Virus genome (UHGV): UHGV-1570996
DNA: 19,300 bases
Strand: one strand, 5' to 3'
DNA from: a virus
Shown here piece by piece: positions 1 to 8,714 of this stretch. Under the pieces are notes generated by a model that saw only the letters and a program-made list of their open reading frames with translations, had not been told where the DNA came from and did no database searches. The stretch's first letter is position 1; every line of letters begins with the position of its first letter. A program made the position numbers and the translations under genes.

Positions 1-134
1 CCATGATTTTCATTTTCAAATATTATTAAATAACAATTCCTATTTATAATATCTGTCATTTAATTTGCTCCAGATACAAGGAATCGCCGCAGCATGGCTA
101 CGGTTGGTATTTGTTGCATACCGAAACGGTACGA

Positions 135-163
135 TTGTTGATTTGTACAGTAGGTTTTACGAT
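135..163 (+). promoter_or_regulatory. Candidate sigma70 promoter for mnt (-35 TTGTTG at 135-140, 17-bp spacer, -10 TACGAT at 158-163)
   Basis: Hexamers read directly from sequence; AT-rich region upstream of the mnt start; near-palindrome CCACCCATTTGGTG (172-185) sits between predicted TSS and RBS. Confidence 0.25.
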
Positions 164-191
164 GCCATTCCACCCATTTGGTGAGGCATTG

Positions 192-449
192 ATGATGTAC
201 AGCAAATACGATGAGGCGCAGTTCCACTTGAGGCTTACGCACGAGTTGCACGCTAAGATTAAGCAGCGTGCAAAAATGAATAACAGGTCTATCAATTCCG
301 AAATTGTGGCTACGATGGAAGAATCACTCTCCAAACCATCACCTGTAAGCGGGTATCGTGATGAAGAAGAGAGGCTGGCCTCATTAATCTCGGAACGAGT
401 AAAAGAAGTTGCGGCTGATATCCTTAGAAAAGAAAAAACCCGCGATTAA
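192..449 (+). CDS. mnt: Mnt-like ribbon-helix-helix repressor (homolog of P22 immI Mnt)
   Basis: Translation from ATG 192 (GTGAGG RBS 6 nt upstream) gives about 85 aa; N-terminal strand-helix region FHLRL...NNRSINSEIV matches the Arc/Mnt RHH pattern (recalled P22 Mnt GRSMNSEL); C-terminal SKPSPVSGYRDEEERLA closely matches recalled P22 Mnt SKPSPVTGYRNDAERLA. The ORF-track start at 111 is judged an upstream extension. Confidence 0.7.
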   Translation: MMYSKYDEAQFHLRLTHELHAKIKQRAKMNNRSINSEIVATMEESLSKPSPVSGYRDEEERLASLISERVKEVAADILRKEKTRD

Positions 450-457
450 GCGGGTTT
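436..457. terminator. Bidirectional rho-independent terminator between convergent mnt and the ant operon
   Basis: AAACCCGC-gattaa-GCGGGTTT hairpin; on the minus strand it is followed by TTTTTCTTTTCT, on the plus strand by a weaker T-rich tract; the mnt stop codon lies in the loop. Confidence 0.6.
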
Positions 458-463
458 AGTTGG

Positions 464-685
464 TTAGTTATCAAAAAGTCCGTACGTTTCTTCTTCTTCA
501 GGTGTAAGGGGAAGAATCTCTACTCTATCTATAGATACCTTTTCAATGTACCCATGAGGTCTACTTAAAATTAAAGCTCTCTCATGCCACAGAACTCCAA
601 GAATGTGATACCTTCCAGCATCGCCTTTTACCCTGGCTCTTCCTTTGATTCTTGGCGGCATAATGCCATATTTTTTCTTTGCCAT
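464..685 (-). CDS. Hypothetical 73-aa protein, translationally coupled to the upstream antirepressor gene
   Basis: ORF with ATG at 685-683 overlapping the TAA stop of the upstream gene by one base (TAATG); basic N-terminus, acidic C-terminus; no family recognised. Confidence 0.5.
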   Translation of the reverse strand: MAKKKYGIMPPRIKGRARVKGDAGRYHILGVLWHERALILSRPHGYIEKVSIDRVEILPLTPEEEETYGLFDN

Positions 686-1413
686 TATGCAACATTACTC
701 CCATGAATCAGGTGTTGTAGTGCTTTAACACCTTCCGCATTGTAGCGGAATGCTTCCACCTGTTTGCTGGAATGCGCAGATTTATCCAGGAAGAACTTAC
801 CGTACTGCTCAGTTTTGAGGTTGTTTGCGTTAGCAATGCGACCAATCTTGTTGGCCGTTACTCCAAGCTGCTCTGCAACCTCCCCTGCTGAGTAGTAATG
901 CTCTTCTATTGCTGGAAGAGGTATTGCATTAAAACCAACGATCGGGTTGATTATGCTTGCTGCCGCAGTCTGCTTTGCTTCCGGCGCAAGATTTGGCATC
1001 AAATCGAACAGATTGGTAACAGCTTCAACCGTCATTTTCAATGTTCGCGCCTGGCGATACTCAACAAGTCCACTAGACGATTTACCGCTTTTAATGTGCG
1101 CTTCTTGCATACTTTCAAGTTGGTCTACAAGTGAGCGGCGAACAGCTTTAGATTCACGAGCAGCCACTCGAAGGGCTTGCTTAATTGACATAACAACTTT
1201 TTCAGAAGTTGTCTTGTTTGATTTTTGAACTACGAAAATTTCGTAGTGCTCACCTTCAAGTTCATCCTTAATGCGTGCAATAAAGTCGTTATTGCGGACT
1301 TCTTTTTCCCCGCACTGTCTACGAGCATGATTGACCATCTCTAACAGGTACTGGCTATCAATGGTTTTATCCGTGACAACGGATCCGATGTTTGCTACAT
1401 TCTTAAAAGTCAT
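685..1413 (-). CDS. Antirepressor-family protein, Rha-like N-terminal region with KilA-C-like C-terminal domain (ant2)
   Basis: Start chosen at ATG 1413 (AAGGAA RBS 7-8 nt upstream) rather than the track start 1464; C-terminal YYSAGEVAEQLGVTANKIGRIANANNLKTEQYGKFF resembles the KilA-C/ANT C-terminal domain; N-terminal TIDSQYLLEMVNHARRQCGEKEVRNNDFIARI resembles phage Rha regulatory proteins. Confidence 0.6.
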   Translation of the reverse strand: MTFKNVANIGSVVTDKTIDSQYLLEMVNHARRQCGEKEVRNNDFIARIKDELEGEHYEIFVVQKSNKTTSEKVVMSIKQALRVAARESKAVRRSLVDQLESMQEAHIKSGKSSSGLVEYRQARTLKMTVEAVTNLFDLMPNLAPEAKQTAAASIINPIVGFNAIPLPAIEEHYYSAGEVAEQLGVTANKIGRIANANNLKTEQYGKFFLDKSAHSSKQVEAFRYNAEGVKALQHLIHGSNVA

Positions 1414-1482
1414 TAGGCATTCCTTATGTGGTAGTAAGGGTGTGACATAGGCCGCCAGCAGCACACTGGCGGTTTTCTTTTT
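1408..1482 (+). ncRNA. Candidate sar-like antisense RNA covering the RBS and start codon of ant2
   Basis: Plus-strand -35 GTGACA (1373-1378), 17-bp spacer, extended -10 TGcTACATT (1393-1401), then a plus-oriented hairpin plus T-run at 1451-1482; no plus-strand gene is present here. Confidence 0.3.
1451..1482 (+). terminator. Plus-strand rho-independent terminator in the ant1-ant2 intergenic spacer
   Basis: GCCGCCAG-cagcaca-CTGGCGG stem-loop followed by TTTTCTTTTT on the plus strand; on the minus strand the same hairpin is preceded by an A-tract with no U-tract after it, so it is oriented for plus-strand transcripts. Confidence 0.45.
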
Positions 1483-1501
1483 GCGCCGTCCGGCGCACCA
1501 A

Positions 1502-2128
1502 TCAATGAATCCATTCCTCGCCGCGCAGTTTTGCCAGCATTGGCTGAGCGTTCTTTACGACAAAATTGTTGGTATCAAGATTCTTCATTTCACGAAGAAG
1601 TGATTTCTTGGTTTCTTCTGACATGTAGCGAGTCTCATATGCAATATCGTAAATCCTTCCTGAAAGCTCAGAACCAATTTGCTTCATTCCTGGGTAGATG
1701 TGTTTGCACATTTGTTGACTCTTCTCCATCCACAATTGTAAGTAGCAGAGATTAACCAGTTCTTCGTCAGTAAACTGTTTTGCAATCGGTGAGCATTCTG
1801 CCTGCCGATCCAAAATATCCAGCACCCAGCGGCGGAACTCTTTGGCTACCGGAGTGCGAGCAAACATCGCGATTAGGTGGGCACCGCGTAGTGAGAAAAC
1901 TCGCACTTTTTTGCGATAATTTCCTGAGGTACTCACTTCGAGTACCTGAGTCATTCCGGCGCTAAATTCATCGCTATACTTGTTATAAATCATTGTTACT
2001 GCACGACTATTTGCGTATTTAAGTGCAGATGCAATATTAGATGATGTAAACCAAACACCATGCATATCACGGGTGGGCACCAACTCAACTCCGTGGAAGT
2101 TGTAATCTGATTTTGCTACAATATTCAT
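1502..2128 (-). CDS. Antirepressor-family protein with AntA/BRO-N-like N-terminal domain (ant1)
   Basis: Start chosen at ATG 2128 (AAGGAAA RBS 7 nt upstream), giving about 208 aa beginning MNIVAKSDYNFHGVELVPTRDMHGVWFTSSNIASALKY, typical of the N-terminal domain of phage antirepressors; the track start 2233 would overlap the arc ORF. Confidence 0.6.
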   Translation of the reverse strand: MNIVAKSDYNFHGVELVPTRDMHGVWFTSSNIASALKYANSRAVTMIYNKYSDEFSAGMTQVLEVSTSGNYRKKVRVFSLRGAHLIAMFARTPVAKEFRRWVLDILDRQAECSPIAKQFTDEELVNLCYLQLWMEKSQQMCKHIYPGMKQIGSELSGRIYDIAYETRYMSEETKKSLLREMKNLDTNNFVVKNAQPMLAKLRGEEWIH

Positions 2129-2205
2129 GTTAGTTTCCTTGCATACGGTTACTGACATAGAGGCCCGGTTTGTGTTCGCGCACTGCCGGGCTTCACTATT
2201 TTTAT
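2129..2205 (+). ncRNA. Candidate sar-like antisense RNA complementary to the ant1 RBS and arc-ant1 spacer
   Basis: Plus-strand extended -10 TGcTACAAT (2114-2122) just inside the ant1 start predicts a TSS near 2129; plus-oriented hairpin GCCCGG...CCGGGC (2163-2190) followed by TTCACTATTTTTATT; arrangement parallels P22 sar as recalled. Confidence 0.35.
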
Positions 2206-2375
2206 TGGATGACAACATCGCCCTTTGCCTCAAGTTTCATCAATAACTCCATTCGATAAGCTATCTCTGCCTGAATTGACCTATGGCATCTTTTTGCTGA
2301 TTCGCGGATATGTGAATCAACCTTTTCTGTAAAACGAACCTGACGCGGCTTGATGGAAGATATCTTTTCAGTCAT
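2202..2375 (-). CDS. arc: Arc-like ribbon-helix-helix repressor (57 aa; below the ORF-track size cutoff)
   Basis: Manual translation from ATG 2375 (AGGAG RBS, 6-nt spacing) to TAA 2204-2202: MTEKISSIKPRQVRFTEKVDSHIRESAKRCHRSIQAEIAYRMELLMKLEAKGDVVIQ; strand QVRF then two helices with an RS-x-x-EI motif as in P22 Arc (GRSVNSEI); lies immediately upstream of ant1 as arc does in P22. Confidence 0.65.
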   Translation of the reverse strand: MTEKISSIKPRQVRFTEKVDSHIRESAKRCHRSIQAEIAYRMELLMKLEAKGDVVIQ

Positions 2376-2424
2376 TATGCACTCCTGTTTTTGAAAAACT
2401 CATAATCTCACTTTTTGCAGTTTG

Positions 2425-2453
2425 ATTATTCACTCACACTCAGTATGAGTCAA
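2425..2453 (-). promoter_or_regulatory. Candidate Pant-like promoter with operator repeats in the spacer
   Basis: Minus-strand -35 TTGACT (plus 2453-2448), 17-bp spacer, -10 AATAAT (plus 2430-2425), about 45 nt upstream of arc; spacer holds tandem CACTCA CACTCA plus an inverted TGAGTCA copy (plus 2431-2453), including inverted repeat ACTCA-gta-TGAGT. Confidence 0.4.
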
Positions 2454-2474
2454 TGAATTTTTTATGGTGAACTA

Positions 2475-3116
2475 ATGAATTTTGACGATCAATTCCCATC
2501 AAGAGTATCTCTGGCAAGACAGTCCAGGGGTATGACGCAGGCGCAGTTGTCAAAATTAGCTGGTGTTGTTCAACGTCAAATAGCTGCATACGAGGGTGGT
2601 GAGGCTAAACCACGGCTTCGTGTATTGCAGGCATTAGCCAACGCATTAGGTACTACGGCTGAGTGGTTAGCTCTAGGTGAAGGTCAGGGTCCAGGAACAA
2701 AAAACGTCATGCCTGACGTTCTGGTAAAGCAAATACCAATTCTCAAACTAGATGAAGTTATGCATTACCTAAACACAGGTGAACATTCATCGTCTAGATT
2801 TCATCCGGCAATATACAATGTTGGTGACTCTGCATTTGCATTGACTATTGAAGGTGAAGCTATGACTACAAGTTCAGGTATTAGCTTTCCCAGAGGATCG
2901 GTTGTCACGTTCAGCCCTCTAGTAAAAGCTAAAAGCAAAGATTATGTAATAGCATCATTGGATAAAGAGCAAATATTGAGCTTCAAACAGGTTTACATTG
3001 GTGAAATAGAGACAAACCTAGTATCCCTAAACCCAATGTATCCTAATATTCTTGTTAGAAATGAAGATGTTAGTATTTTGGCAACCGCAGTTTACCTTGA
3101 AATCCCGTTGCTTTGA
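2475..3116 (+). CDS. cI/C2-like repressor: N-terminal HTH (XRE type) and C-terminal LexA/S24-like domain with catalytic Ser apparently replaced by Ala
   Basis: 213-aa ORF with GGTGA RBS; HTH region MTQAQLSKLAGVVQRQIAAYEGGEAKPRLRVLQALANALG; C-terminal EGEAMTTSSGISFPRGSVV aligns with lambda cI EGNSMTAPTGSKPSFPDG (Ser to Ala at the nucleophile), FKQV aligns with cI FKKL, and LNPMYPNI with LNPQYPMI. Confidence 0.8.
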   Translation: MNFDDQFPSRVSLARQSRGMTQAQLSKLAGVVQRQIAAYEGGEAKPRLRVLQALANALGTTAEWLALGEGQGPGTKNVMPDVLVKQIPILKLDEVMHYLNTGEHSSSRFHPAIYNVGDSAFALTIEGEAMTTSSGISFPRGSVVTFSPLVKAKSKDYVIASLDKEQILSFKQVYIGEIETNLVSLNPMYPNILVRNEDVSILATAVYLEIPLL

Positions 3117-3176
3117 TATCCTTTAGGAAGCGACACATTATCATCTGGTATCCTGCTCAAAACTAAGGAGGTTGGT

Positions 3177-3404
3177 GTGAAGCGATGGTTCCTCATAATT
3201 ACTGTTTTCGCGATCATTTACGCTATTTTCCCTGCATTAAAAGCACCAATGCAAATAATTTCACTAGCAATAATTGCAATTGGTGCTTTCATTACAGTAT
3301 CCGTACTTGTGTTTAAGGTTTTAAAGTTTTTAGTTTGGCTATCAAAAGATGATGGATGCAAAGTTCATCAAGAAAAAGAAGGCAAAATAACCAAAGTTGA
3401 CTAA
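3177..3404 (+). CDS. Small 2-TM membrane protein (75 aa) downstream of the repressor gene
   Basis: GTG start at 3177 preceded by AAGGAGG with 6-nt spacing; two hydrophobic helices (FLIITVFAIIYAIF and IISLAIIAIGAFITVSVLVF) and a charged C-terminus; its stop overlaps the stop of convergent gp16. Confidence 0.5.
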   Translation: MKRWFLIITVFAIIYAIFPALKAPMQIISLAIIAIGAFITVSVLVFKVLKFLVWLSKDDGCKVHQEKEGKITKVD

Positions 3405-5524
3405 CTGTCACTAGCGAGCCATGTAATAATCCCAGTGCGAGCAATGGTTTTTGCTTCATCTGTTGATAGGGTTTTCTCCCATCTCTTAAATACCCCAGAT
3501 TGCATCAGTTTCCTTTCTATTGCGCGTCTCACTTCTGCTCTGTCTACTGGTGCGTTTTGCAGGCGAAATAGCATTGATTTAAACTCAGGAGAAGACAGTA
3601 GAGCATCAGCAGCCTTTATCCTGCTTGTTTTCCCTGACATCAATGCGGACGTTATCACCCCTGTTGCACCTACACCAGGAAGACCAGATAAGCTTGTAAC
3701 ACCTTCCGCCGCAGCAGCTTTTGAGGCTATTCCATAAATTTTTGCTAGACTACCCTTTTCCTTCAGAAAGTTATTAACTTGCTGATCCACAAGGCTGCTA
3801 GCATACTGCTTACCAGTATTGAGTCTATTCATAGCCTTGGCTGCTTGATAAATCGTATCAAGGCGCTTTGATGCATCTGTGCCAATAGCATCACGGAGAG
3901 CCTTCATATTGGCCCCATTGCGTGACATTCCGTTATACCATTTTACAAATCCATCAACCCCTAATTGCTGACCTGGTGATTTAGCATAGCTGGTAAATGC
4001 TTTATTCATTGAGGTGAGCGCAACTTCCTGCCGCATATCCTTTGGAATTGACTTCATTAATTGCCTAAAGTCACCACCGTTTCCTTTTGCCATATTAACA
4101 ACGGCACTTTCAACTTTTGGAATTGCTGATTGCTGAAGTTTTCTACCCAAAACGGTTACGGCATCATCTTCAATGGATTTTCGTGTTTTTACCAACTCCT
4201 TACCAAGCGTCCATAACTCCCCTGCGCCATATTTTTCTGCGACAGCCTGTTGGTCATCTGTTATAGCTGCATATAACTTTTTAAGAACACCTGTTTCTTC
4301 ATCCTTGAATGGGCCAGAGCCTTTGCCAATAGCTTGCCCAACCTGCTTTCTAGCGAGATCTAAACGCCCATACGTTGGCAAGGTGTTTGGATCAAGTCGG
4401 TTCAATGTCCGCTTCATTATTGGAGATAATTCATCAATTCCACCTATGTCATCAGCAAAATCCTCTAAAAAATTCAATGTATTGGTTGCCTCAATACGGT
4501 CTCTTACTGGAACCTTTTCGGCAATTTTGTTGTAGATGTTATCTGACTGATTTTGTAATGATGAAATGGTTTTATCAAAATTATCTGCAAGCCTGTCAGA
4601 AACCAGTTGCTTATCAAGGTTTCCCCCAAATGAAGTTATCATTTCATCAGCTTTTCTTCCTAATTCAGTAATAAAGCGCTTATGCGCCTCACTAATCTCT
4701 GTTCCAGGAAGACTTGCCACTGCATTATCAAGAGCCCTGACAGCAGGATTATTAGAGATCATTCCTGGAGTGGCATAATTTTCCAGTTCTAGCTCACGGA
4801 TGGCATTTATCGCGTTAAAATCAGGATTAACTTCATCGGCGAAACCTTGAATAGCTCGTTGCCCGCCAATAAATTTATTATCCATTGCGCCAGCAGCTTT
4901 CTTTAACGTTGCTTTAAATGATTTACTCCCCATCCCTACGGATGAGCGATAAATATCCCCGGCACTATTTTTAATTTTTCCTGCAATCTTCCCAAGCGCT
5001 GGACCAACAATCTCGGCTACAGGGCCAGCCACAGCGCCAATAGCAGCGCCGGAAGCAACATCGCTATTTGTTCCATTGGCTACAATAGCCCCTTCTCCAG
5101 CACCAAGCCCTGCGGCGGCAGCCAGCCTTGCCGCCCCTTTCGGAACCTGAGAAATAATCCCACCACCACTAACAAATGGCGCGGCTTGTCCAACAAACTC
5201 ACCAACATCTTGTGCGGTTGATGGTTTTGCCGCTAACTTCTGCTGTAGAGACTGAATTGCGGCTTGCTCTTCTGGTGTCATATCCTGAAACAGGCCAACA
5301 CCTTTACCAACATCCATCAATCCACTGAGAACGCCATACATAAAACGGTCGAAGCCGTTAGCATTATTAACAACATTTTCCTGTCTGGAATTTTCCTCTG
5401 GTGAAACCAAAGGAGATTGCTGCTGTTCTGGTTGGGCATCAAGCACAAAGCCATCAGGAAGCTGTGAGTTATCAGGCTGATTATCGAGAACAAAGCCTTC
5501 GGGTAAACCTACATCGGTTGCCAT
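3401..5524 (-). CDS. gp16-like ejection (internal virion) protein, N-terminally extended with a short tandem repeat
   Basis: 707-aa ORF at the position of P22 gene 16 (last gene of the morphogenesis operon after gp20); Ala/Gly-rich low-complexity segments; N-terminus carries [12 protein letters not shown] / [12 protein letters not shown] repeat. Confidence 0.65.
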
Positions 5525-6852
5525 TGTCCGTTCCTGTAAATGAGTTTCTGACCAGTTTTAGGGTTCGTTGCCGTCGCGCCTTCTGATATCCCACTTGGCG
5601 CAGCTTTTGTCTGCCCATTACCACCTTGTGGTGTAGGCTGCGCTGGGACATCGTCAAATAGCTTGGCCTTCCTTCTCCCTAAGCTTTTTTTCAGCCCCTG
5701 AGGAATAGTATCTCCATACGTATCCAGATATTCGTCTACCTGCTGGTTAAACTGCTGCCCCATAGCGTTGGCGTTAATTTTTGCTGCGTTAACAATGTTA
5801 TCCCTCGCTTCCTGTGACAAGCCATTCCCTGCATTAAGCTGGTCTACATATCCTTTTATCTGCCCCCATATGCCATCAGAGCGCATAACCTGAACCTGTT
5901 CACCTTCGCGAACAACTGACTGAGGGTCGAGAGACTTCATGTAATTAAAGATAATCCCAAGTTGGGCAGCGCCAGTATTTACCTTGCTAAGGGCTTGCAG
6001 AGAGTTTGCCGCCGCTCTGACAGAGTTATAATTTTTACCAAAATTGGTAATGTCAGAATTTAATCCCTTAATTAAGTCTGCTGACGGCTTACCTTTTTGC
6101 CCCAGCTCCATTAGCTTCAATCCCATCTCATCTGAGTGCATTTGTGCCCGCTGAGCCCTGTCTAGTTGAGCGTTTTGGATATTTGCCCATCCTCTCGCGT
6201 TCTCCATGTCAGCCTGACGGATGCTTTCATCCAATCGCCCTTTCTCAAGTTGGCGACCAACCATCTTATCCTGATAATCCAGCATTTTATCCGGACCAAC
6301 AGCCCCTAGCGTCATAGTAGTCAGCATGTGTGATAGCTGCTCTGGATTCTGAATACCTGTCTGAATCATCCAGTCAGCATTCGCCCCCACGCGATTTAAC
6401 CTGTCCTTGTTATCAGTAATGAATTTACTGTAGGCTTCCGGTCCCTGAGAAAGAGCGACGTTAGCCCTCATGGCTAAATCGCCCATATCGTTGCGTTGCT
6501 GCTCATTAAGACCGGAAAATGCCTGTTGTGCCTGTGCAACAAACGCTGGATTTTCCTGGGCAAACTTAAATAGTCCCGATGGATCACCAGAAGCCCATGC
6601 ATCAGCATGAACCTTATTGAACGCATTAATCGCTTTCTGTTGCTGTTCCTGCTTATAAATATCAGCAACTCCAGCCAGACCACGTAACGCGGTCAGACCA
6701 ACGTTATTTGCACCTGAGCGAGCCAGTTCATTGTTTTCGCGGATCAGACCAAGCGTTGCGTTAATGTCGCTTGCCTTTGGCGCATTCTCATTTTGCGCAC
6801 CGATGCCAGCCAGAAAACCACCAGAATTAATACCCTGTTGCCACGTAGCCAT
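5509..6852 (-). CDS. gp20-like ejection protein
   Basis: 447-aa ORF between the gp7-like and gp16-like genes, matching P22 gene order 7-20-16; assignment by synteny and size. Confidence 0.65.
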
Positions 6853-6862
6853 TGATTACCCC

Positions 6863-7555
6863 TTAAAACAACGAGCCAAGCAGACCAAGACCGCCGCCGA
6901 TCGCAGCCCCCCACGGAGTTGATGAACCAATTAATTTCGCAAGTCCGGCCCCAGCAATAGCACCAGACGCACCTCCGCCAATAGCAGATTGCATTGCTGA
7001 TGGTCTGTTGGCATTTGCCGCTGCAAGAGCCGCACTTTGCTGCGAAATCTGACTCATGTTGTTGGCATATGTCTGCCCTGCGTTTGCCTGACCTTGCAGA
7101 GCACCAAGCCCAACGTTTGCCAGATTCTGGTAGTTGTTCATCTGACCAGACAGCCACTGCTGACCAAGCGTTGGTGCGATTGTTGCTAACTGATTACCGG
7201 TTGCAGTGGAACCCAATCCACCTGTTGCTTCCGCTGCAGCCAGACTCTGATAGCGAGCCTGACCAGCAAGATCTTTGTACTGCTGAGAGTTGTAATACTG
7301 GTTAAGCGCCTGACCTTGCCCTTCCAGAGACGATAAGTTCTCGAGGCTGCCGACATACTTATCAGCCAGAGGAGTAAACGGCTTCAGGTTGTTCATGATG
7401 GTGTTGAACTGCTGATTTTGCAGGTCTGCGGCATACTTCTGAGCTTCTGCTGCATACTTTGCGCTTTTATCAGAGCTGCCACCTTTCCCGCCTTTTTCAG
7501 GGCACCAAGGTTCCTCGCCGCGCAGTTTTCTGCCCAGCTTAAATGCATATAACAT
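6863..7555 (-). CDS. gp7-like ejection protein
   Basis: 230-aa ORF (P22 gp7 is about 229 aa) in syntenic position; Gln/Ala/Gly-rich with hydrophobic glycine-rich C-terminus. Confidence 0.65.
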   Translation of the reverse strand: MLYAFKLGRKLRGEEPWCPEKGGKGGSSDKSAKYAAEAQKYAADLQNQQFNTIMNNLKPFTPLADKYVGSLENLSSLEGQGQALNQYYNSQQYKDLAGQARYQSLAAAEATGGLGSTATGNQLATIAPTLGQQWLSGQMNNYQNLANVGLGALQGQANAGQTYANNMSQISQQSAALAAANANRPSAMQSAIGGGASGAIAGAGLAKLIGSSTPWGAAIGGGLGLLGSLF

Positions 7556-7557
7556 GG

Positions 7558-8013
7558 CTATCTCCCGTGATTCAGGAAGTCGATTAGTTCTTCGCGTGTT
7601 GCGCTGTAAAACGTCACGTCATCCACGCCTTTGAAGTATTTCTTGATGGTTCCTACACGATTAAGGCCAATCATTGCGCAGTACATCTGACCGTGGCGGA
7701 ATTTGCGTGCAGCGAACGATGTGACGCACTGAACGGTGGTGTTAGTCAGAATGTATCGCCAGAACGCCAGCCCGATTTCCTTGCTGAATCCGCGAATCTC
7801 TGGCAGGTACATGGCGTGGCAATCGAATGTCAGCGGCTGAATCTCCTGATAGTAAACAATGCCGCCGAACTGCCCGTGCACGTTCACCTCAAAGTAACGG
7901 CAATCAGGTTTGTAGTCGTATCCATCACCGTTGTTGCTCCCGGCGATGATGTCAGGGTGATTTCCTACTGCTTCGATCAGGTCGATGTTTCGCGTTGGTT
8001 TGAATGTAATCAT
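7558..8013 (-). CDS. gp14-like virion assembly/ejection-associated protein
   Basis: 151-aa ORF between the tail needle and gp7-like genes, as for P22 gene 14; assignment by synteny only. Confidence 0.5.
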   Translation of the reverse strand: MITFKPTRNIDLIEAVGNHPDIIAGSNNGDGYDYKPDCRYFEVNVHGQFGGIVYYQEIQPLTFDCHAMYLPEIRGFSKEIGLAFWRYILTNTTVQCVTSFAARKFRHGQMYCAMIGLNRVGTIKKYFKGVDDVTFYSATREELIDFLNHGR

Positions 8014-8714
8014 CAGTCAATCAGCCCATGTAATCTAAGTGCTGTTTCAAGCGCCAGAATACGCTGCCGCGCCTGCTGCAAACCTGTAGCGAGAGCTGCG
8101 ACTTCGGATTGTGTGTACGTAGTGCCGACCGTGTATGACTGGTTAGCGTTGAATGAGCCAAGAAGTGGCGTACCTGTGGCTGCAGTCCATCCGGTATTTC
8201 TTGCTCCAACAACCTGAATTCCATCAACTGAATATGATGTTTTTACATCCAGCGGTGACTCAAGAGACTGCAATTCGGTTACGGTTTTCGATACGTAATC
8301 ACTCTTAATGCCAGAGACATCGTTTTCTACGTCATCCAGTCTTTGGTCAACAGTGACCAGATGCGCCTGAATATCGATAACCTCATCCAGCAAGTAATCA
8401 ACATCGCTACGCAGTACGACTATCTTCCCTTCGGCAGTTGTTAACCTGACCTCAAGTAGATTTATCGCTTTTGTGTTTGCGGTGATTCTTGCGTCGTGAT
8501 CAGCCAGTTCGACGTCCTGTTCATCGTTTTTCACCTGAGCATCGTAAGCGCCCTGACCAGCCTGATTTGCCTTCCCGGCAATTGCGCCGACATCAGCCCC
8601 CTGATTAATGACATACAGCAGGTAAGACTGGCTGAATATATTGCGTGGAAGGATTGATGTATCGAGCCGCGTCGCCTGCACAATAACAGGGGTGTTGAGA
8701 TTCGAATCAGCCAT
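8013..8714 (-). CDS. 26: Tail needle protein (P22 gp26 homolog)
   Basis: 233 aa, same length as P22 gp26; N-terminal [64 protein letters not shown] and C-terminal [13 protein letters not shown] closely match recalled P22 gp26. Confidence 0.9.

Follow-up and report, generated by a model that had tools for sequence, protein, structure and literature searches.

A conserved divergent control region in the antirepressor module of a P22-like prophage, a variant of the P22 immI design

The 99-bp interval that separates the gene of a 57-residue RHH protein from a divergent cI-like repressor gene in the viral genome UHGV-1570996 is a genuine conserved control region, which is a variant of the P22 immI design and not new in kind. 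The moment at which a prophage overrides its main repressor is set by antirepressor modules, of which P22 immI is the textbook case. The explanation that we consider best, and to which we give about an even chance of being right, is that the interval serves as a two-way promoter-operator for a self-contained module of antirepressor control, which would work like P22 immI, with a 15-bp dyad at the antirepressor promoter as the operator of the cI-like repressor. A literature search found no published description of this module. The window referred to below is the entire stretch of DNA analyzed (19,300 nucleotides).

Results

The module and its neighborhood

The window is part of a P22-like (Lederbergvirus) prophage and its closest phage record is that of Escherichia phage JEP4, which shows 95% identity across 86% of window positions 1-3500. 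The features of the control region and of the surrounding genes are collected in Table 1. To the right of the 213-residue repressor gene lie a small membrane ORF and then the ejection-protein genes on the minus strand, and a gp20-like Inj_translocase is found near the antirepressor module. By synteny with JEP4 and epsilon34, the module sits in the slot that immI holds in P22 and epsilon34, between the ejection-protein genes and the tailspike gene. Villafane et al. named this slot the 'ant moron', which is highly variable in P22-like phages and of which only the P22 version has been studied (PMC2629481). CUS-3 was considered as a carrier of the same moron type, but it differs in having ant plus two mnt genes.

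As in P22 and epsilon34, a strong leftward promoter is followed by a small RHH gene and then by ant. Two distinct antirepressor-family genes (phrog_245 Ant and phrog_1726) lie in tandem and share one promoter with a conserved 73-residue ORF (464-2128, minus strand); the second antirepressor gene distinguishes the window from P22 immI. A further difference is that the true Mnt homologue of the window is not adjacent to the control region. It adjoins the tailspike gene start and is convergent with the antirepressor operon. The sequence upstream of this homologue includes a 13-bp palindrome, TACCGAAACGGTA (117-129), which could be an operator and bears no relation to the ACTCA sites discussed below; a LexA-box-like sequence, TTGTTGATTTGTACAG (135-150), has one mismatch, which is the chance level. 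Where the mnt-like gene and the antirepressor operon meet end to end, a hairpin, AAACCCGC...GCGGGTTT (436-457), is flanked by T-runs on either side and resembles a terminator that acts in both directions.

In the RHH-ant spacer, the plus strand of 2118-2208 faces the start and ribosome-binding site of ant and folds as a pair of hairpins (-35.8 kcal/mol, z -5.4, 0/200 shuffles as stable), the second of which is GC-rich with a U-rich tail that gives it a terminator-like end. An Rfam search of this spacer gave no family match, only a sub-threshold symR, and no promoter for such an RNA was identified. By fold and position the element may be a counterpart of the sar antisense RNA of P22, which lies across the ant ribosome-binding site.

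Table 1 Features of the control region and the surrounding module (window coordinates).
Feature	Position	Strand	Basis or remark
Tailspike gene start	ATG at 58	minus	
Mnt homologue	198-449	plus	Pfam Arc 3.7e-15
73-aa ORF, last in the antirepressor operon	464-685	minus	phrog_4977, function not annotated
Second antirepressor-family gene, same operon as Ant	685-1413	minus	phrog_1726, 2.4e-100
Antirepressor Ant, target of the proposed switch	1502-2128	minus	Bro-N + P22_AR_C; phrog_245
57-aa RHH protein, first gene of the operon (Arc analogue)	2202-2375	minus	Weak profile matches
99-bp intergenic promoter-operator region between RHH gene (minus) and cI-like gene (plus)	2376-2474		ORF calls
Shine-Dalgarno AGGAG of RHH gene	2382-2386	minus	Read from sequence
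Distal box AAAACTCATA, inverted relative to TATGAGT (2444-2450)	2395-2404		~+14 to +23 of the inferred transcript; Omnt positional analogue
Second distal box CTCAC, 8 bp from first CTCA	2407-2411		Conserved in window, L148 and L150; weak evidence
Candidate weak promoter of cI-like gene, TTGATT, 16 nt, TATGAG	2422-2427, 2444-2449	plus	4.9 bits; Pmnt positional analogue
-10 hexamer AATAAT, 17-nt spacer	2430-2425	minus	-10 at 16-18 nt from -35 in every relative scanned
First CACTCA copy	2431-2436	plus	Lineage-specific, probably not a required site
15-bp dyad CACTC-AGTAT-GAGTC, proposed operator overlapping spacer and -35	2437-2451		Arms conserved in close relatives
-35 hexamer TTGACT of antirepressor-operon promoter (Pant analogue)	2453-2448	minus	Sequence and consensus scan
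A/T-rich tract directly upstream of -35, GAGTCAATGAWTTTTT	2456-2465	minus	UP-element-like; UP function inferred
Shine-Dalgarno-like GGTGA of cI-like gene	2466-2470	plus	AAGGTG/GGTG 5-8 nt before ATG in relatives
213-aa lambda/434-type repressor, HTH_3 + Peptidase_S24 fold	2475-3116	plus	Pfam and PDB profile matches

A widespread and portable cassette

Homologous cassettes were gathered from viral, genome and metagenome collections and through homologues of the 57-residue protein. Their repressors range from 100% down to ~35% identity, and wherever neighbors are listed the layout is constant: a gene of ~57 codons, a gap of ~90-102 bp and a divergent HTH + S24 gene, with one or two antirepressor genes after the small gene. 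The divergent genes are mostly 97-102 bp apart (90 bp for the L109 subfamily), and IS insertion or truncation has damaged a few copies. The cassette occurs in Escherichia, Salmonella, Klebsiella, Yersinia, Serratia, Hafnia, Atlantibacter, Enterobacter and other hosts. Part of 2150-3200 is matched by 251 of 5426 complete E. coli genomes, 28 of which have at least 80% of this segment. Instead of P22-type genes, many copies have tail, baseplate or sheath genes next to them and, given these varied structural neighbors, the cassette is portable. In one E. coli locus (L002, strain E272, 6326-8646) the cassette abuts replication/cII/cro/cI genes and the ejection-protein genes are missing, which points to a deleted or rearranged prophage.

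The leftward promoter

A divergent control region between the arc-like and cI-like genes, with a minus-strand promoter TTGACT-17-AATAAT, had been proposed in the initial annotation, and both proposals held. The promoter is the top match of a consensus scan of positions 1-3600 and the sole sigma-70 match of at least 10/12 on either strand of the whole 19.3-kb window, for which ~0.005 would be expected per 99 bp. A minus-strand promoter in the same position, judged relative to the conserved G(A/T)GTCAA, was the top match in 36 of 36 distinct homologous intergenic regions from many Enterobacterales prophages, with scores of 10-14 bits. The -35 sequence TTGAC(T/A) is retained in nearly all of these regions (TTGACC in the L109 subfamily) and the A/T-rich tract is kept across modules whose repressors are just 41-46% identical, the -35 hexamer and the tract behind it being the most conserved part of the region. 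Since its position is maintained throughout the homologous modules scanned, this promoter is very probably real, and from its location we infer a leftward start near 2418.

Control of this promoter by the host, with LexA or a similar protein as the regulator (Gifsy-type/186-type) and the phage proteins as accessories, seems to us exceedingly improbable. Antirepressors controlled by host LexA are known in other prophages (Lemire et al. 2011, as cited in PMC12922286), but CTGT-N8-ACAG is absent from 2376-2474 at up to two mismatches and the module always has its own divergent repressor. Inspection by eye for CRP-like TGTGA/TCACA pairs gave nothing convincing.

The repeats and the 15-bp dyad

The spacer of the leftward promoter (plus strand, 2431-2447) reads CACTCACACTCAGTATG. 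The initial annotation had this spacer filled by two direct CACTCA copies and an inverted TGAGTCA copy. All three are present, the second CACTCA (2437-2442) in tandem with the first, but TGAGTCA (2446-2452) lies mostly within the -35 hexamer, only its first two bases being in the spacer. Together the second and inverted copies give a perfect 13-bp palindrome, ACTCA-GTA-TGAGT (ACTCAGTATGAGT, 2438-2450). In the 15-bp dyad 4 of the 5 arm pairs are complementary, the outermost pair being C/C, and the half-site centers are 10 bp apart.

A search for CACTCA half-sites elsewhere, which had been put forward as a check, gave no enrichment (7 in the window versus 10.8 expected). The sequence CTCANNNTGAG (core CTCA-N3-TGAG) has its single occurrence in the window here, and 0.4 would be expected per window by chance. 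As CACTCA is not enriched and the core is near chance, the repeats cannot be called non-random from the window sequence alone. Their status rests on the relatives, which conserve the dyad but not the first direct copy.

Most is learned from the relatives L148 and L150, whose repressors are 80-82% identical to that of the window overall and 93-94% identical in the N-terminal domain, with an identical helix-turn-helix segment (TQAQLSKLAGVVQRQIAAYEGG). Their RHH proteins are 84% identical to that of the window and the beta-strand is identical. Despite these identical DNA-reading residues, the first CACTCA is replaced by GACCGC (L148) or GACTGC (L150), which argues against the direct CACTCA pair as the functional unit. 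When the window was aligned with these two loci (alignment A4), positions 2376-2415 were almost invariant and the -10 hexamer, CTC (2439-2441) and TGAGTCAATG (2446-2455) were invariant, whereas 2416-2423, 2431, 2434-2438 and the dyad center 2443-2445 were scrambled. Within the E. coli lineage the variants in this part fall at 2442-2445 (GTA to GCA or CTA; CAGTA to CGGAA), the other polymorphic sites being 2393, 2417-2419 and 2461. Because the arms are kept while the center and the first CACTCA vary among relatives, the conserved unit, as read from these alignments, is the dyad with a free center and not the tandem hexamer pair.

Over all loci the N5 register of the dyad gave the best arm complementarity (108 versus 22-84 for other registers), and L090 has a perfect dyad, GACAC-TTTAT-GTGTC, in the same register. 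In four loci whose repressors share the recognition helix of the window's repressor (L004, L145, L152 and L154) the left arm is poor, with 0-1 of 5 pairs, and the dyad is therefore not universal. In a sister subfamily (L107, L108, L109, L111 and L131) ACTTCAT replaces ACTCAT upstream of the cI-like gene, with two or three direct copies exactly 10 bp apart, and an added inverted copy makes a palindrome of 17-19 bp over the promoter spacer or the -35 hexamer.

It could be argued that the interval is a promoter and nothing else, the CACTCA tandem and palindrome having arisen by chance or slippage in an A/T-rich spacer, with regulation elsewhere, for example through a sar-like antisense RNA or intragenic sites. 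We judge this improbable. The chance-level counts given above would fit such an origin, as would the lack of spacer conservation among distant relatives and the many lineages that have no good dyad, and membership of the -35 hexamer would by itself constrain the right arm. Against it, the left-arm CTC is retained in L148 and L150 within an otherwise scrambled stretch of 15 nt, the variants of the window's own lineage mainly hit the dyad center, and other lineages bear their own dyads in the same register. Moreover, a repressor gene 21 nt from a strong promoter would presumably be unusual if it had no operator there.

A candidate rightward promoter

The initial annotation required a plus-strand promoter for the cI-like gene to overlap the leftward promoter back to back. 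The gene has a Shine-Dalgarno sequence in all relatives and hence its mRNA should not be leaderless, which would put its start upstream of ~2462, inside the opposite promoter. The best candidate in the window, TTGATT-16-TATGAG, lacks the -7 T and scores 4.9 bits versus 13.5 for the leftward promoter, and no convincing or conserved plus-strand promoter was found in the window or in the relatives scanned, the candidates varying by lineage. The further suggestion that one bound protein could switch both promoters is a fair one, because the P22 Pant and Pmnt promoters are divergent and overlapping and both are repressed by Arc (PMC2724298).

The distal box and the leader

Downstream of the inferred leftward start lies a second conserved element, the distal box, which does not vary among the loci that encode a class-A RHH protein, including those with an unrelated spacer, and is the best conserved non-promoter element of those loci. 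In most lineages an ACTCA core is found in the opposite orientation to the proximal TGAGT, offset from it by -39 to -42 or -48/-49, and by eye similar CTCA pairs 8 bp apart occur in other lineages. The distal box is not a dyad in the window or in most lineages, although L145 has ACTC-ATATC-GAGT. In the full JEP4 genome the distal box occurs in this region only, and the dyad pattern occurs here plus one match in a coding sequence. As both are nearly confined to this region, the switch appears to act locally.

The distal box may be a site for the RHH protein, a second site for the repressor or both. An apparent covariation of the distal flank with the repressor recognition helix was rejected, since the exceptions (L084, L126 and L127) follow left-half homology, that is, linkage. 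The flank appears to follow its linked half and thus we draw no ligand from it. Looping through helical phasing of the distal and proximal ACTCA elements was also considered, but the offsets (39, 41-42 and 48-49) give no clean series of integral turns.

The leader (2376-2404, minus strand) contains AUGAGUUUU, the reverse complement of AAAACTCAT, which opens a short upstream ORF that overlaps the RHH start. A leader peptide was dismissed: class-A loci retain the AUG, but a consistent ribosome-binding site is lacking and the peptide is unconserved in class-B loci. A 13-bp palindrome, GTTTTTGAAAAAC (2387-2399), immediately precedes the RHH Shine-Dalgarno sequence. Its central G2393 is replaced by A in many near-identical relatives, position 2391 differs in L148 and L150, and the palindrome may be no more than low-complexity sequence.

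Comparison with P22 immI and other operators

In the epsilon34 control region, read in the same orientation, Pant consists of TTGACA, a 17-nt spacer that is Oarc, and TATATT, followed by Omnt just downstream of the -10 hexamer (~+5 to +21 if the start is ~7 nt past the -10). On the opposite strand we read TTGAGA-17-TATCAT, which fits the joint 'Pmnt/Pant' feature of the record and has the same spacer. The window shares this geometry. The initial annotation had noted that the repeats lie where the Arc operator lies, and they do occupy the same position as in the P22/epsilon34 spacer; a second conserved element likewise follows just downstream of the start, the weak plus-strand candidate sits at the relative place of TTGAGA-17-TATCAT, and the divergent repressor ATG is 21 nt from the -35 hexamer for the cI-like gene versus 22 nt for mnt of epsilon34. 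The operators, however, are unrelated. Positions 2376-2474 contain neither TAGA-N5-TCTA nor GGTCCACGGTGGACC, and the interval has no similarity to the epsilon34 control region beyond the promoter hexamers. The divergent repressor also differs, being a 213-residue HTH + S24-fold protein rather than the RHH tetramer Mnt of P22.

With lambda and 434 cI the module shares the kind of repressor and a candidate operator that is likewise a short dyad with conserved arms, a free center and half-sites one helical turn apart, overlapping a promoter. Unlike those systems, the window has one full dyad and no tripartite OR-type array, and the dyad would govern the antirepressor operon rather than lytic early promoters. 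The two direct repeats and one inverted repeat resemble the omega heptad array of RHH repressors. The operators of Arc and CopG are 13-bp elements with 4-bp inverted boxes 5 bp apart, a 4-5-4 geometry shared by ACTC-N5-GAGT (PMC2724298). In contrast to the Arc, CopG and omega systems, the conserved and co-varying parts of the window's region do not follow the RHH protein and the 6-bp tandem spacing is unconserved.

The two regulator proteins

The 213-residue repressor matches HTH_3 (9e-13) and Peptidase_S24 (1e-12) in Pfam, and by PDB profile matches it is homologous to 434 repressor in its N-terminal domain and to lambda cI in its C-terminal domain. Ala129 (codon 2859-2861) aligns with the catalytic Ser149 of lambda cI (GEAM versus GNSM), whereas the lysine is retained as K171. 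Relatives, both close and distant, mostly have Ser at this position (GDSM or GESM), L037 also having Ala. No Ala-Gly cleavage site is evident in the linker of the window repressor, a further difference from lambda and 434 cI. As Ala stands in place of the catalytic Ser, the repressor of the window's E. coli lineage is probably unable to self-cleave and is probably a non-cleavable maintenance repressor, which would fit a Mnt-like role.

The 57-residue protein belongs to phrog_10182, a family of unknown function. It matches Pfam ParD_like at 8e-4, below the cut-off, and has weak PDB profile matches to Arc and CopG (E 0.017-0.3). An hhalign comparison with Arc gave 2.4e-4 at 44% probability, with alignment along strand, helix and helix including the RS(I/V)xxEI motif. 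The name 'arc' given in the initial annotation is thus reasonable as a functional label, since the similarity to Arc and CopG is weak but consistent, whereas family membership is not established: there is no match to Pfam Arc (PF03869), another departure from P22. The AF2 model of the monomer, a single long helix, is of no use for a protein that is an obligate dimer.

Which protein reads the dyad

The repressor has the recognition helix x-R-Q-I-A-A-Y-E, invariant across the loci except at x, which is Gln33 in the window and, by alignment with 434 repressor and its numbering, falls at the first position of helix 3. All loci with x = Arg carry GTGTCAA in place of GAGTCAA, and they fall into three separate clusters of N-terminal domains, as grouped by UPGMA on 65 residues, which is not a tested phylogeny. 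In L090, where x is Arg, both arms are changed symmetrically to GACAC...GTGTC, a complementary change relative to the window. The RHH proteins of L090 and L098 are 98% identical (one residue differs), yet their repressors are of the Arg and Gln types and their spacers and flanks are unrelated, differing with repressor type. L107 has a window-type recognition helix together with another RHH subfamily, and by eye AACTC-N6-GAGTT lies in its promoter spacer. Co-variation of the operator with the DNA-facing residues of the RHH protein fails among the loci compared, only the ACTCA core being common. Half-site centers 10 bp apart suit a dimer of the 434 type. Because the dyad tracks the recognition helix of the cI-like repressor across lineages and not the RHH protein, we favor the cI-like repressor as its probable ligand. 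The initial annotation had instead pointed to the Arc-like protein as the reader of the site, which disagrees with the finding that the lineage-specific part follows the repressor.

A rival reading that builds on this has the Arc-like protein occupy the spacer and shut both promoters, binding either the 13-bp symmetric element ACTC-AGTAT-GAGT as a dimer of dimers or the three hexamers as an array. The cI-like repressor would then sit on the distal box (+8 to +23) in the manner of Mnt at Omnt, blocking the antirepressor promoter and sparing its own. We think this rather unlikely, although the layout is positionally identical to that of P22 and epsilon34, with Oarc in the spacer and Omnt downstream of the start, ACTC-N5-GAGT has exactly the form of the 13-bp Arc/CopG operator (PMC2724298), the 57-residue protein aligns with Arc through its characteristic motif and the distal box is so well conserved in class-A loci. 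Several observations count against it: nearly identical RHH proteins face unrelated spacers in L090 and L098; the four class-A loci with a poor left arm share the window's DNA-facing RHH residues, yet have no ACTC-N5-GAGT; the variable base of the proximal site follows the repressor recognition helix; and the first direct hexamer is unconserved. In addition, a distal box that is no dyad in most lineages would be an awkward site for a lambda/434-type dimer.

The assignment of the cI-like repressor to the dyad, which we hold at even chance, has difficulties of its own. The P22 arrangement would assign the spacer to Arc and a site beyond the start to the maintenance repressor, and ACTC-N5-GAGT suits Arc and CopG as well. 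The plus-strand promoter that repression at the dyad would also control is weak and unconserved, the outermost pair of the dyad is C/C and the left arm is poor in the four loci named above. Finally, the proximal site is ~125 bp from the recognition-helix codon, and the association of residue and base is confounded by linkage.

Discussion

Taking together the sequence elements, their conservation, the protein families and the P22 geometry, we infer which protein binds where and in which direction regulation runs, as follows. The strong minus-strand sigma-70 promoter would drive the RHH protein, Ant, the second antirepressor and the 73-residue ORF. The dyad, which covers part of the spacer and half of the -35 hexamer, would be the operator of a dimer of the divergent lambda/434-type repressor. 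In the lysogen, repressor bound there would exclude RNA polymerase from the antirepressor promoter. The dyad also covers the -10 hexamer of the weak candidate promoter that lies back to back and would serve the repressor gene itself, and the bound protein would thereby restrain its own production. The RHH protein, made from the antirepressor promoter, would exert an Arc-like negative feedback. Its candidate sites are the ACTCA-core elements that are nearly universal in the lineages, TGAGTCA at the -35 hexamer and AAAACTCATA/CTCAC at ~+8 to +23.

A bolder form of this scheme, speculative and in our opinion unlikely, is that two unrelated repressors, one a lambda/434-type dimer without catalytic activity and the other a minimal RHH protein, recognize overlapping ACTCA-core sites (at the -35 hexamer and ~+17, 38-48 bp apart and inverted) and jointly clamp one strong promoter, possibly through a small loop. 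The portable 99-bp cassette would then have repeatedly re-specified its operator by single recognition-helix changes (Gln, Pro or Arg at position 33 with ATGAGT, TTGAGT or GTGTGT). If this two-repressor reading of ACTCA were true, the cassettes would form a natural series for the evolution of repressor-operator specificity.

Known principles are unchanged by these findings, but the cassette is widespread and has gone unannotated. The variant replaces Mnt with a lambda-type repressor and uses an unannotated RHH family, phrog_10182. Related cassettes that differ in recognition-helix residues and carry matching operator changes provide a ready panel for specificity experiments, and the presumed loss of self-cleavage bears on whether these prophages answer DNA damage by this route.
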